Shown here: positions 4,789-8,580 of the stretch, piece by piece
Position numbering within the stretch: position 1 is the stretch's first letter
Layout: the number at the start of each line of letters is the position of its first letter
Assembly: GCA_934644775.1 (NCBI GenBank)
Contig: CAKUDB010000005.1
Coordinates: 51,036 to 115,035, forward strand
Direction: 5' to 3'
Length of the DNA stretch: 64,000 nt
Source of the DNA: an uncultured bacterium
GTDB lineage: Bacteria; Vulcanimicrobiota; Xenobia; Xenobiales; Xenobiaceae
Notes under the pieces: generated by a model
What the model was told of the DNA's origin: nothing
Seen by the model: only the letters and a program-made list of their open reading frames with translations
The model's database searches: none
Position numbers and translations under genes: made by a program

Positions 4789-7700
4789 ATGTACGACCAA
4801 TCAGCTCAAAATGGCAACATGTATGGAAACGATTCAGCCCTTTCGGCTGCTTCGTCGTTCGACGCTGCCACTAATCAGGGAGCGCCGCAGCCCAGCGCAG
4901 CTCCTAAGGGCTCGGCCGTACCGACTTCGGCTCCGTCCAGCTCTTCGGCTCTCTCTTTTTCTTGGCAAAAAAATAGCGGAGCAACAGCGCCGTCTCCTAG
5001 TCCCGAAGTTCAGTCGACTCCGGTTCTGAGTCCTCGCCTCCAAATGAGAGGAGCGGCGGGCAATTTAGCTAGTTTGCGCAACGTCGACCCCAGATATTCC
5101 GCAGCCGAAGAGGCTCTGCTCCTTAGTAGCCCCTCTTCTGCCTCCCCAACTCCCACCTCGGCCACTCCTACTCTCTCTGCCAATACCGAGTTGCGCCGCT
5201 CGACCTCTATTAGCCCTAGGTTGCGCTATACTAGCCAATCTAGGCGCACGGCTGCCCCTATTCAGGAAGAATCTCCCGATTCGAAGGCGGCCCTGGCCTT
5301 GGAAAAGCCCAGTCGCCTCTCTTCTACTCAACTTCAGGCAGAAGCTACTGCCCTTCCCTATCAATCACAGTCGGCTCAACACCTTAACCGTTTGGAAAGG
5401 CCCGCCCACCATACACCAACGAAACCTGCCGACGCTACTCAGCCGCGCCAGACTACAGCTTTAGGGGCCCAACCTCAAGCCCAACAACAAAAGGCCGCCG
5501 CTCCTACTTTGGGAGCTCAGCCTTATCAGCCACGCCCAGCCACAGCTTTAGGGGCCCAACCTCAAGCCCAACAACAAAAGGCCGCCGCTCCTACTTTGGG
5601 AGCTCAGCCTTATCAGCCACGCCCAGCCACAGCTTTAGGGGCCCAGCCTCAAGCCCAACAACAGAAGGCCGCCACTCCTACTTTGGGGGCCCAGCCTTAT
5701 CAGCCACGCCCGGCCACAGCTTTGGGGGCCCGACCTCAAGCCCAACAGCAGAAGGGCGCTGCTCCTACTTTGGGAGCCCAGCCTTACCAGCCGCGTCCGG
5801 CCACAGCTTTGGGGGCCCCAACTCGAGTGCCCACCACTTCCACTTTGGGAGGGCTGCCTCAACCCCAGCGTTCTACAGGGCCAGCTTTAGGTGCTACTCA
5901 ACCTCCAGCCCAACAGCAGCGGGCCACAGCTCCTACTTTGGGAACCCAGCCTTACCAGCCGCGCCCGGCCACAGCTTTGGGGGCCTCAACTCGAGTGCCC
6001 ACCACTTCCACTTTGGGAGGGCTGCCTCAGCCCCAGCGTTCTACAGGGCCAGCTTTAAGCGCTACTCAACCTCCAGCCCAACAACAGCGGACGGCCGCCC
6101 TTACTTTAGGAGCTCAGCCTTACCAACCGCGCACAGCGGCCGCTTTAGGCACGCAAACTCAGACCCAGCGCTCTACGGGGCCTACCTTAGGTGCGCCCCA
6201 GCCTCAAGCCCGACAGCAACGGGCCACAGCTCCTACTTTGGGAGCTCAGCCTTACCAACCGCGCACAGCGACCGCTTTAGGTGCGCAAACTCAGACCCAG
6301 CGCTCTACGGGGGCTACCTTGGGTGCGCCCCAGCCTCAAGCCCAACAGCAACGGGCCACAGCTCCTACTTTGGGAGCTCAGCCTTACCAGCCGCGCACAG
6401 CGGCCGCTTTAGGCACGCAAACTCAGACCCAGCGCTCTACTGGGCCTACCTTGGGTGCGCCCCAACCCCAAGCCCAACAGCAGCGGGCCACAGCTCCTAC
6501 TTTGGGAGCTCAGCCTTACCAGCCGCGCACAGCGGCCGCTTTAGGCACGCAAACTCAGATCCAGCGCTCTACGGGGCCTACCTTAGGTGCGCCCCAACCC
6601 CAAGCCCAACAGCAACGTGCCACAGCTACTACTTTGGGAGCTCAACCTTACCAGCCGCGCACAGCGGCCGCTTTAGGCACGCAGACTCAGATCCAGCGCT
6701 CTACGGGGCCTACCTTAGGTGCGCCCCAACCCCAAGCCCAACAGCAACGGGCCACAGCTACTACTTTGGGAGCTCAGCCTTACCAGCCGCGCACAGCGGC
6801 CGCTTTAGGCACGCAGACTCAGATCCAGCGCTCTAGTGGGCCTGCCTTAGGTGCGCCCCAACCCCAAGCCCAACAGCAACGGGCCACAGCTCCTACTTTG
6901 GGAGCTCAGCCTTACCAGCCGGGCAAAGCTGCCGATTATCCAGCTACCGAGCCCAGCCCCAGAACAGCCGCTACTGTGCCCCTTACCTCTACCTCAGGGG
7001 CTACGCCTAAAAATGCGGCTGAGGCTGCAACTAAGCAGCGACGTCGTCCCAACGTACCTAACCAACCCATTTTAAAAAATGCTCCCAATAACAGAGGTGG
7101 AGCCAAAACCCAAGGCGGCCGACAGATCCCTACAGTATCAGCCACCCCTCCCAAAGAGTTTCTTAAAGAGAAAGAGCGTAAGGCGCTTTTAGCTCAGCGT
7201 GTAGCCGAATATAATAATATTCAGTCATACTATGCCGGTTATATGGCTTATTATGAGCAACAGCAAAATCGCTTGGAGCAACTAATTAAAGATGAAAAGA
7301 CCTCCAGCATCGAGCGCAAGCACCTCTTTGAGCAACAAGGGGATCTTTATCAAAAGCAGCGGGCCTTATTCCAATTGCAAACAAGTCTTTACGAGTTTGT
7401 TAGCAGTAAGAATTTTGATCCTAGCTCCGCCCTACCCTTCACGCCTTTAGATGAAGAAGGGACAAGCGGGCCTAAAAAGTTTGATAAGACTCCCGAAGAG
7501 CACTGGTCGGCCATTCTGGGCTCAGATATTAAAAAGCAGTCCAAGAAACATCATAAACGTGAAAGCGAAAAGCCTTACAAGATCACCAAGAAGCATGAGT
7601 CTGTTTTGGAGCGGCGTATGCGCCGCATGGAAGAGCTCAAACGCTGGGAGAAAGAATGGAAAAAGTATTACAAGACTGATTCCTTCTGGCGTAGGCAAAG

Positions 7701-8580
7701 ATATTGGGGTGCTTTGCTCTTTGTTATCGGCGTAGCCATTTTAGTGGGCTTACTGAATATCAGCAACGTTTTGAAATGGTTTGCTTCAGATTACGAGGTG
7801 CCTTTATTACCTATTGAAACCCATGACTTAAAGACTAATTACCAGCAAGGCTATATCCCTGTCCATAAAGGCGATATGGTTCCAGTCGACAGTCGTTTAG
7901 TTAGCGGGAAGTCTCCCTATAATGTTATGGCTCTGCGTAATGGAGGCAACTTACGTATTGACAAGTATAGTGACGTACTGATTGAGAACTTAAAAACCGA
8001 TAAAGATGGCCGATTTTTAAGTGGATTCTTCCTTAAACAAGGCCGAGTCTTTGCTTACAGTATGCCTAAGAGTATGGTCTTTGTGCTTACTCCTCAAGTG
8101 CGAGTTACTCCAGTTAACGATCAAAATACCATGTATGCCGTAGCTTTAAAAACTGATGCTCAAGGCCATCAGTGCACTTTAGTCAGCGTTTATCGCGGCA
8201 TGTGTGTAATAGGCTACACTACAGGTACTTTACAGACGGTTCGAGTCGGTGCCGGTCAAGTTCTAAAAAGTTATGCTACCAAACTGGGCATACCCGACAG
8301 ATTGGGGCCGGCTGATAAGTGGACTAAGTGGAACTACAATTGGGACACGAGCGACACTTATATCTCTCCTTTATCTTCTCCGCAATTGAATCAAACTACG
8401 GAAGAAGAAGAGGAAGAGAGATTAGAGGAAGAAGCCAACAAAAACGCAGTAGAAGCTTTTACCAAAAAGCAAGCTGCCGATAAGAAGAAAGAAGTTAAAG
8501 CCAAAACTAAAACCAAAGCTAAAACTAAGACCAAGACCAAAAAGAAACAGAAATCAAAGACTAAAAAAACGAAAAAATAA
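4789..8580 (+). CDS. Giant P/Q/A-rich tandem-repeat protein with a single TM helix, a C-terminal globular domain and a K/T-rich basic tail. Function unknown.
   Basis: A 1263-aa ORF. Roughly 190 aa of S/A/P-rich N-terminus are followed by 4x 28-aa, 2x 58-aa and about 6x 44-aa near-identical repeats. Next come a coiled-coil-like basic region, a TM helix (YWGALLFVIGVAILVGLLNI), a roughly 230-aa domain, an EEEEEE run and the tail KAKTKTKAKTKTKTKKKQKSKTKKTKK. Confidence 0.7.
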   Translation: MYDQSAQNGNMYGNDSALSAASSFDAATNQGAPQPSAAPKGSAVPTSAPSSSSALSFSWQKNSGATAPSPSPEVQSTPVLSPRLQMRGAAGNLASLRNVDPRYSAAEEALLLSSPSSASPTPTSATPTLSANTELRRSTSISPRLRYTSQSRRTAAPIQEESPDSKAALALEKPSRLSSTQLQAEATALPYQSQSAQHLNRLERPAHHTPTKPADATQPRQTTALGAQPQAQQQKAAAPTLGAQPYQPRPATALGAQPQAQQQKAAAPTLGAQPYQPRPATALGAQPQAQQQKAATPTLGAQPYQPRPATALGARPQAQQQKGAAPTLGAQPYQPRPATALGAPTRVPTTSTLGGLPQPQRSTGPALGATQPPAQQQRATAPTLGTQPYQPRPATALGASTRVPTTSTLGGLPQPQRSTGPALSATQPPAQQQRTAALTLGAQPYQPRTAAALGTQTQTQRSTGPTLGAPQPQARQQRATAPTLGAQPYQPRTATALGAQTQTQRSTGATLGAPQPQAQQQRATAPTLGAQPYQPRTAAALGTQTQTQRSTGPTLGAPQPQAQQQRATAPTLGAQPYQPRTAAALGTQTQIQRSTGPTLGAPQPQAQQQRATATTLGAQPYQPRTAAALGTQTQIQRSTGPTLGAPQPQAQQQRATATTLGAQPYQPRTAAALGTQTQIQRSSGPALGAPQPQAQQQRATAPTLGAQPYQPGKAADYPATEPSPRTAATVPLTSTSGATPKNAAEAATKQRRRPNVPNQPILKNAPNNRGGAKTQGGRQIPTVSATPPKEFLKEKERKALLAQRVAEYNNIQSYYAGYMAYYEQQQNRLEQLIKDEKTSSIERKHLFEQQGDLYQKQRALFQLQTSLYEFVSSKNFDPSSALPFTPLDEEGTSGPKKFDKTPEEHWSAILGSDIKKQSKKHHKRESEKPYKITKKHESVLERRMRRMEELKRWEKEWKKYYKTDSFWRRQRYWGALLFVIGVAILVGLLNISNVLKWFASDYEVPLLPIETHDLKTNYQQGYIPVHKGDMVPVDSRLVSGKSPYNVMALRNGGNLRIDKYSDVLIENLKTDKDGRFLSGFFLKQGRVFAYSMPKSMVFVLTPQVRVTPVNDQNTMYAVALKTDAQGHQCTLVSVYRGMCVIGYTTGTLQTVRVGAGQVLKSYATKLGIPDRLGPADKWTKWNYNWDTSDTYISPLSSPQLNQTTEEEEEERLEEEANKNAVEAFTKKQAADKKKEVKAKTKTKAKTKTKTKKKQKSKTKKTKK
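5461..6910 (+). repeat. Nested in-frame tandem DNA repeats: 84-nt units x4 (about 5461-5800), 174-nt units x2 (about 5800-6110) and 132-nt units x about 6 (about 6110-6910), at more than 90% identity
   Basis: Direct reading shows, for example, ttaggggcccaacctcaagcc recurring with period 84 and taccaaccgcgcacagcggccgctttaggc recurring with period 132. Confidence 0.85.

Follow-up and report, generated by a model that had tools for sequence, protein, structure and literature searches.

What kind of protein is encoded by a very long open reading frame (ORF) that carries some 1.5 kb of nested tandem repeats and that had at first been matched to no family? The question is raised by a gene at positions 4789-8580 of a 64-kb stretch of DNA (hereafter the window; contig CAKUDB010000005.1) from an uncultured bacterium of the class Xenobia, most likely a gut inhabitant; we refer to its protein product as X. 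A first-pass annotation, made from the letters of the sequence, had described a giant ORF at this place, and the ORF is indeed intact: X is read from an ATG start in one unbroken frame of 1263 amino acids (aa). We conclude that the gene is genuine and conserved among uncultured gut bacteria of the Xenobia, that it encodes a single-pass membrane protein, and that the C-terminal domain of ~155 aa is a diverged FecR/PupR CJM beta fold, while the long N-terminal part, which contains the repeats, is predicted to be disordered and polycationic. This architecture is held in common by X orthologues of 1001-1442 aa, and its elements in the window are as follows (L numbers denote loci and P numbers proteins; AF2, AlphaFold2; pLDDT, predicted local distance difference test; pN/pS, ratio of non-synonymous to synonymous differences per site).

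4789-8580, plus strand: the whole ORF X, 1263 aa, stop codon included.
4789-5433, plus strand: N-terminal S/A/P-rich region (aa 1-215), predicted disordered (AF2 pLDDT ~30-50), its sole secondary structure being a helix at 179-186.
5215-5247, plus strand: short linear motif PRLRYTSQSRR (aa 143-153), kept in the window, L005, P0005, L010 and P0006 and partly in P0007.
5439-6934, plus strand: polycationic tandem-repeat array of 33 [T/A]LG sub-modules (from Tandem Repeats Finder, a module map and a charge count).
5461-5808, plus strand: four 87-nt (29-aa) units, LGAQPQAQQQKAAAPTLGAQPYQPRPATA; 87-100% nucleotide identity, pN/pS 0.09.
5809-6144, plus strand: two 168-nt (56-aa) units; 88% identity, pN/pS 0.28.
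6145-6936, plus strand: six 132-nt (44-aa) units, the last merging into the linker; 89-98% identity, pN/pS 0.28.
6937-7155, plus strand: basic linker (aa 717-789), with invariant alignment columns.
7156-7404, plus strand: conserved helical hairpin (aa 790-872), predicted cytoplasmic.
7495-7521, plus strand: EEHWSAILG motif (aa 903-911), a short helix.
7705-7773, plus strand: single transmembrane helix (aa 973-995), from hydropathy, flank charges and AF2 helix 146-200.
7804-8271, plus strand: diverged FecR-fold (PupR CJM-like) all-beta domain (aa 1006-1161), predicted periplasmic.
8314-8346, plus strand: Trp-rich motif DKWTKWNYNWD (aa 1176-1186).
8401-8433, plus strand: acidic run EEEEEERLEEE (aa 1205-1215), kept in close orthologues.
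8464-8577, plus strand: Lys/Thr-rich polybasic C-terminal tail (aa 1226-1263).

The C-terminal part of X provides the link to a known fold. The protein has one hydrophobic segment (aa 973-995), whose 15-residue flanks hold six Lys+Arg on the N-terminal side and one on the C-terminal side; the single transmembrane helix with positive-inside flanks proposed in the first-pass annotation is thus borne out, and the cytoplasmic N-terminus proposed along with it fits both this charge bias and the presence of a FecR-type domain beyond the membrane. From its sequence X is predicted to be bitopic, N-in/C-out. The AF2 model of aa 790-1200 (alignment A4, 19 sequences; mean pLDDT 81) opens with a two-helix hairpin (aa 791-872); then come a short helix at EEHWSAILG (to which [YF]W..[ILT]L corresponds in the short orthologues P0008, P0009, P0010 and P0012), a disordered basic stretch and one long helix made up of the juxtamembrane and transmembrane segments, with the basic juxtamembrane helix KEWKKYYKTDSFWRRQRYW directly N-terminal of the transmembrane helix. 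Beyond the membrane the model folds aa 1006-1161 into a beta domain of 16 strands, with pLDDT mostly >90, and then gives a short helix over DKWTKWNYNW, where W1178, W1181 and N1182 of a W-x2-W-N-x2-W motif are invariant throughout the whole family. The acidic run and the K/T-rich tail that had been read at the C-terminus are both present, and Lys-rich C-terminal tails likewise occur in P0004, P0007 and P0009.

A whole-protein scan of X gave no Pfam match, FecR included, even at E<=1, no NCBIfam match was found for X, and a PDB sequence-profile search with it returned no match. The remote relatives P0011 and P0013-P0016, found by profile, do exceed the gathering score of Pfam FecR (PF04773), and X itself has a structural match in PDB 4M0H, the 'putative anti-sigma factor' BDI_1681 from Parabacteroides distasonis. 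The statement that X matches no family is thereby refuted for the C-terminal domain on the terms that the first-pass annotation itself had set, since this domain has a diverged FecR/PupR-CJM fold. Neither the cytoplasmic half nor the architecture as a whole belongs to a recognised family.

The FecR/PupR sigma regulators (PF04773; PDB 6OVK/6OVM) are, like X, single-pass inner-membrane proteins with a cytoplasmic N-terminus and a periplasmic FecR (CJM) beta fold. The PupR domain is made up of an all-beta CJM subdomain and a beta-alpha-beta STN subdomain (PMC7186176), and X carries the CJM-type subdomain alone: no STN (FecR_C) subdomain was found in X, where the beta domain is followed in the AF2 model by a single short helix, past which the sequence is charged and of low complexity. 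X also differs from these regulators in lacking an N-terminal cytoplasmic anti-sigma domain (~80 aa), for which there was no Pfam or NCBIfam match and in the place of which AF2 gives disorder and a long two-helix hairpin, and in lacking a nearby partner extracytoplasmic function (ECF) sigma factor or TonB-dependent transducer. It is too diverged for a direct Pfam match, has ~970 cytoplasmic residues versus ~85 in the regulators, and has in addition the W-x2-WN-x2-W motif and a charged tail. Self-cleavage at a Gly-Thr site of the FecR type was considered; the sole candidate in X, a TGT at ~aa 1144-1146, is not conserved and was rejected, as was a metal site in the FecR-like domain, the invariant residues of which are only R, G, P, W and N. 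BDI_1681 is one of the FecR-like anti-sigma proteins of Bacteroidota, which are paired with ECF sigma/SusC-type systems, a context that the X locus does not have. The FecR fold is used outside sigma regulation in the Leptospira envelope proteins LipL45 and Lsa33, to both of which, and to FecR, the remote relative P0015 has weak NCBIfam matches; however, these are lipoproteins or adhesins without a cytoplasmic region, whereas that of X is large.

What, then, occupies the cytoplasmic side? Its 970 residues comprise the helical hairpin, short conserved motifs, the basic juxtamembrane helix and ~790 residues predicted to be disordered, and 500 of these ~790 belong to a tandem array, polycationic in character and built of [T/A]LG-x9-14 modules. 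We ran Tandem Repeats Finder (TRF) over the whole window with a score cut-off of 80 and obtained three overlapping arrays, each in frame within X: 5439-5818 (period 87 nt, 4.4 copies, 92% matches, score 604), 5733-6132 (period 168 nt, 2.4 copies, score 653) and 6026-6934 (period 132 nt, 6.9 copies, score 1454). No further array scoring at least 80 was found anywhere in the window, and since those of X are the sole ones, they lie far beyond what would be expected by chance. The unit lengths had been given as 84, 174 and 132 nt, of which 132 stands and the other two are replaced by 87 and 168. To call the repeats near-identical was somewhat generous, as in-register units are 87-100% identical with only one identical pair, mean identities are 91% (87-nt class), 88% (168-nt class) and 93% (132-nt class), and the longest exact repeat in the array is 104 nt. 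The description as nested is apt because one kind of sub-module underlies all three unit classes: the array resolves into 33 [T/A]LG-anchored sub-modules (e.g. ALGAQPQAQQQKAAAP, TLGAQPYQPRPAT and ALGTQTQTQRSTGP) at a spacing of 12-17 aa, the lone exception being a 31-aa gap where the module has LS for LG. Between aa 216 and 716 there are 37 Lys+Arg versus a single Asp+Glu.

For aa 1-789, AF2 run on a shallow alignment of 3 sequences returned a mean pLDDT of 35 and essentially no secondary structure, i.e. the region is predicted to be disordered as well as polycationic, with a net charge of +47 over the whole tail. In 7/7 long orthologues the tail is 533-987 aa long, has a net charge of +27 to +47 and contains 10-15% hydrophobic residues, and this polycationic character is kept among them even where the repeat sequences are unrelated. 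Conserved linear motifs lie within it: PRLRYTSQSRR is followed downstream by KAALALEKPS and then LQAExTxLPY, and the basic linker keeps the stretches PYQPGKAA(D/N)YP, RRRP..NQP and IPT(V/I)SATPPK. In comparison with L005, pN/pS is 0.30 for the N-terminal 215 aa versus 0.09 for the C-terminal part of X. A Tat-like reading of 'SRRTAAP' was dropped, as no hydrophobic region follows it.

How widely does this protein occur? An exact-protein look-up found no record identical to X. The non-repetitive C-terminal 421 aa, used as a query against 5.8 billion proteins, retrieved only four clusters, which are all metagenomic and lack Pfam domains; by profile, only 17 out of 1.84 billion cluster representatives were retrieved, and a second, word-indexed profile search contributed P0020 and P0021 only. 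Nine loci were found by scanning GTDB with one genome per species; P0010, which is not syntenic, was left out of the orthologue count. X orthologues are restricted to Xenobia-type gut and rumen metagenome-assembled genomes (MAGs). Gut MAGs labelled UBP9_UBA4705 and 'Ca. Riflebacteria' HGM23016, together with Hadza-gut MAGs, have orthologues with 87-88% identity to X, Candidatus Bruticola has one with 75% identity, and those of rumen MAGs have 49-50%. NCBI taxonomy places Bruticola in the class Xenobia of the Vulcanimicrobiota (Eremiobacterota), and the phylum's cultivated member has a diderm envelope with a lipopolysaccharide outer membrane (PMC9758169). The complete orthologues measure ~1049 aa (L005), 1001 aa (P0005), 1299 aa (L010), 1215 and 1207 aa (L011/P0006) and 1442 aa (P0007). 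The relatives P0008, with 310 aa, and P0009, with 339 aa, are 29-32% identical and have only ~70 cytoplasmic residues and no hairpin.

A paralogous Eremiobacterota-type family (P0011 and P0013-P0019) is like X in having a core of transmembrane helix, FecR-like domain and Trp motif (W-x2-WN) joined to long low-complexity repeats, but in this family the low-complexity region is a P/Q/G/N-rich C-terminal tail on the outside (e.g. (GGNQQFGPPGQ)x8 in P0013), whereas in X it is N-terminal and inside. P0011 and the X orthologue L012 share one rumen MAG (GCA_017458675.1). The gene context of the paralogous family (loci L027, 6001-7230, and L028/L029, 842-2638) also differs from that of X, the neighbours being B12-binding radical SAM, PEMT/ICMT-like methyltransferase, LPG_synthase_TM and glycosyltransferase genes.

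Comparison of the orthologues revealed how the array evolves. Each has its own repeat period, i.e. 123 nt in L005, 162 nt in L010 and 165/330 nt in L011, while the rumen lineage L003 has an unrelated unit of ~46 aa and P0007 has other repeats. The units of the window are 87-100% identical to each other versus at most 77% identical to any unit of the sister species, for which the flanks are 81-86% identical. The array has thus undergone concerted evolution or independent re-expansion, and it fits the description of a concerted disordered repeat in its pLDDT of 35, its closer units within a genome and its lineage-specific periods. The differences between units are mainly synonymous (pN/pS is 0.09 among the 29-aa units and 0.28 in the 56-aa and 44-aa classes, at a pS of 0.13-0.27), which indicates that the unit peptides are constrained and that several of the duplications are not very recent. 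Turnover of the array is via in-frame unequal recombination or gene conversion, with the peptide under purifying selection. In strain L001, the flanks of which are 99.4-99.7% identical to those of the window, the last three units are other variants than in the window and there is a 9-nt insertion. The proposal of ongoing expansion and contraction is therefore upheld at the species level by the separate periods, the low identity of units between species and the differences in L001. The associated proposal of ON/OFF phase variation is not supported: all of the periods in the window, and those of 123, 162 and 165 nt in the orthologues, are multiples of three, so that changes alter the length of the protein and not its expression state; the repeat changes lie within the ORF and preserve the frame, and the repeats, with no signal peptide or other hydrophobic segment N-terminal to them, are positioned on the positive-inside, predicted cytoplasmic side of the sole transmembrane helix.

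The same array breaks assemblies, and the risk of assembly collapse that had been pointed out for it is strongly supported by gaps and contig ends. All three long ENA scaffolds (3/3) have 100-N gaps within the array, at 9784-9883 in L001, at 9442-9541 and 9878-9977 in L002, where the two gaps also disrupt the reading frame, and at 9128-9227 in L003; in L001, the only same-species assembly, the gap stands in place of window positions 5550-6516. Six of the nine GTDB contigs start within the array, and four metagenome contigs stop 164-1115 nt upstream of the conserved part. Because of the scaffold gaps, the proteins P0001-P0004 in the databases are calls cut short to 616-711 aa, with internal TTG or ATG starts, and the X gene is consequently under-represented in protein databases.

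The gene does not stand alone, and the genes around it in the window are as follows.

628-3951, minus strand: two CNNM/CorC-type transporter genes, divergent from X and syntenic in all lineages with enough upstream sequence.
4211-4732, plus strand: upstream partner, a SlyD-like FKBP with a Cys/His tail (Pfam FKBP_C; NCBIfam PRK10737 below cut-off).
8637-9026, plus strand: downstream partner, DUF493/YbeD-like with a His/Cys-rich N-terminal extension (Pfam DUF493).
9034-9699, plus strand: MgtC-family gene, 7 nt past DUF493.

In gut, Bruticola and rumen genomes the order is two CNNM/CorC genes on the minus strand followed on the plus strand by FKBP (SlyD-like)-X-DUF493-MgtC-HtrA, and the FKBP-X adjacency is kept in L001-L003 and L014-L017. 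The intergenic gaps are 56 nt (FKBP-X), 56 nt (X-DUF493) and 7 nt (DUF493-MgtC) with no terminator-like site between the genes, and a simple promoter and terminator scan gave background levels. MgtC is probably in the same transcript in the gut lineage only, and is absent past DUF493 in L014 and L015. The loci of the short relatives P0008 and P0009 have the same CNNM-CNNM / FKBP-X-DUF493 layout, with gaps of 14-26 nt or a 4-nt overlap. From this decisive finding it follows that the ancestor was a short transmembrane plus FecR-like protein in a slyD-X-DUF493 operon, and that it was the host-associated gut/rumen lineage which gained both the hairpin and the giant disordered region.

The two partners carry extensions that look metal-binding, i.e. 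the C-terminus CGGQCHSCSGCH of the SlyD-like FKBP and the His/Cys-rich N-terminal extension of ~45 aa of the DUF493/YbeD-like protein (MNEENHRQHKHDEHCHCGCHDHKHEE...), and L014 and L015, which are distant but syntenic, have kept both. With CorC and MgtC added, the neighbourhood takes on a divalent-cation flavour, which is only a hint; X itself has no conserved metal-ligand residues. Among NCBIfam models, the CNNM protein encoded at 2326-3951 (minus strand) scores best, though below threshold, against that of the polyamine exporter PaeA, with CorC behind it, which makes it uncertain whether 'magnesium/cobalt' is the right reading here. Published work on DUF493/YbeD and on Xenobia offered no clue to function beyond the diderm envelope of the phylum. 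In L015 a Thoeris-like pair (ThsB_TIR and ThsA_Macro domains; 7359-8880, minus strand) follows DUF493 and replaces MgtC/HtrA.

Further away in the window, a 178-aa protein (14483-15019, minus strand) has a marginal DivIVA match (29.3 bits versus a cut-off of 28) and unannotated counterparts of 178-181 aa in syntenic loci, and a family-B DNA polymerase (23716-26064, minus strand; Pfam DNA_pol_B, E 1e-25) lies in the setting of a bacterial chromosome. The gene at 33920-35644 (plus strand), for a 574-aa Hanks-type Ser/Thr protein kinase, is directly 3' of that for a 1153-aa transglutaminase-core protein (30346-33807, plus strand); such a kinase could act on the Thr/Ser-rich tail of X, but nothing ties it to X. 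For a 338-aa protein (29190-30206, plus strand) the families matched are the anthrax lethal factor N/C domain (ATLF) and Peptidase_M90, and a squalene-hopene cyclase (36155-38395, plus strand) predicts hopanoid synthesis in this gut lineage. Large ORFs with no Pfam match at E<=1e-5 are found at 59057-61966 (minus strand, 969 aa), 44597-46375 (plus strand, 592 aa) and 38480-39913 (plus strand, 477 aa).

What might such a protein do? The fold, topology, disorder, synteny and repeat dynamics described above were read from tool results, and it is from the fold, the topology, the composition and the gene neighbourhood that we infer a scaffold or sensor function. The reading that we favour, at somewhat better than even chances, is that X is a bitopic inner-membrane protein which combines a periplasmic FecR-fold sensor or docking module with a cytoplasmic polycationic repeat tether or scaffold. 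The FecR-fold domain would serve as the envelope-side sensor or docking module, and the tail, being long and flexible, would provide a multivalent, cationic tether or scaffold that recruits or holds partners at the membrane, e.g. proteins recognising the repeat motif, or polyanions, its length and valency being tunable through changes in copy number. X would then be neither a classical anti-sigma factor nor a surface antigen.

Several points weigh against this. The function is a prediction, and the neighbourhood is kept mostly among related genomes, which makes it weak evidence of functional coupling. The Pfam FecR link of X is transitive, through the remote profile relatives, and the fold assignment and the disorder prediction depend on models from 19 and 3 aligned sequences respectively. 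The repeats differ between deep lineages, the units of P0007 and L003 being unrelated, which argues against one binding motif and fits a role of length and charge or no specific role. The analyses indicate neither a ligand for the FecR-like domain nor a partner for the repeats, and the copy number of X is as in this one assembly.

Among the alternatives, the one that holds up best, although we consider it unlikely, is that X is an envelope, division or morphogenesis scaffold analogous to ZipA, FtsN, DamX, RodZ or FimV/HubP. These proteins and the FtsK linker do, like X, combine long P/Q/A-rich disorder with a single transmembrane helix in a plausible spacer or scaffold role; envelope genes lie nearby (HtrA-like protease, NlpC/P60, JAB+LysM and DivIVA-like), and the paralogous family is found in envelope-lipid gene clusters. 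However, none of their defining folded domains was found in X by the Pfam scan (ZipA_C, SPOR, HTH/DUF4115 and LysM/FimV_C), X lies outside any dcw or mre cluster, and its conserved operon partners are SlyD and DUF493 and not division genes. In contrast to linkers of the ZipA/FtsK/FtsN type, the disorder of X is a homogenised polycationic cytoplasmic array with a FecR fold on the outside.

A similarly low probability attaches to the view that the tail is a near-neutral 'junk' expansion and that only a core of ~310 aa is functional, i.e. the juxtamembrane motif, the transmembrane helix, the FecR-like domain and the SlyD/DUF493 partnership. The short orthologues work without a tail, neither the sequence nor the period of the repeats is kept between deep lineages, and the relaxed N-terminal constraint (pN/pS 0.30 versus 0.09) points the same way. 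Yet a polycationic disordered region of 533-987 aa is present in every gut and rumen lineage sampled, the unit peptides are under purifying selection, the conserved linear motifs sit within the tail, and in every complete orthologue the frame runs unbroken through 2.4 kb of low-complexity sequence.

It is improbable, slightly more so than either of these, that X is a divergent FecR-type anti-sigma factor which senses in the periplasm and uses the hairpin to sequester an ECF sigma factor encoded elsewhere. The fold, the match to 4m0h ('putative anti-sigma factor'), the N-in/C-out bitopic topology typical of the class and the conserved helical membrane-proximal cytoplasmic region all speak for it. 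Set against these, zf-HC2, RskA and FecR_N/DUF4880 were not detected in X or P0007, the STN/FecR_C subdomain is lacking, and the short orthologues dispense with the hairpin. Moreover, no sigma-70/ECF domain was found in the window, where the check covers ORFs of at least 90 aa, nor beside any X orthologue or paralogue.

We rate just as low a more specific form of the scaffold idea, in which the tail is a new kind of membrane-anchored, length-tunable polycationic disordered scaffold. Its ~34 Arg/Lys- and Tyr-bearing modules, evenly spaced and nearly devoid of acidic residues, would be held at the inner membrane by the FecR-fold sensor and would bind a cytoplasmic polyanion, which may be nucleoid DNA, RNA, polyphosphate or acidic lipid, or drive the formation of condensates at the membrane. 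If true, a signal on the envelope side would thereby be coupled to how the nucleoid or RNA is organised, with the SlyD prolyl isomerase as chaperone and the His-rich DUF493 as modulator. Least probable by far is a phase- or antigenically variable, adhesin-like surface repeat protein under host immune selection: the organism is host-associated and the array evolves fast, differing among species and strains, but the lack of a signal peptide, the single transmembrane helix and the positive-inside bias place the repeats in the cytoplasm, periods in multiples of three make frameshift switching impossible, the predominance of synonymous changes (pN/pS 0.09-0.28) is the opposite of diversifying selection, and X has no sorting or anchor motif.

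Returning to X as a periplasmic FecR-fold module on a cytoplasmic repeat tether, what is new is a FecR-fold membrane protein without the parts of a sigma regulator and with a lineage-specific giant cytoplasmic repeat tail; X exposes no new mechanism as yet. An orphan giant gene of the barely studied, uncultured Xenobia has gained an annotation, as a diverged FecR-fold protein in a slyD-X-DUF493 operon. Its disordered array has been re-expanded in each species with a period of its own, while charge, composition and unit peptide are kept under selection, and the locus breaks short-read MAG assemblies so that proteins of in reality more than 1000 aa are called at 616-711 aa. For the family as a whole, X adds to the evidence that the FecR fold is used beyond sigma-factor regulation.

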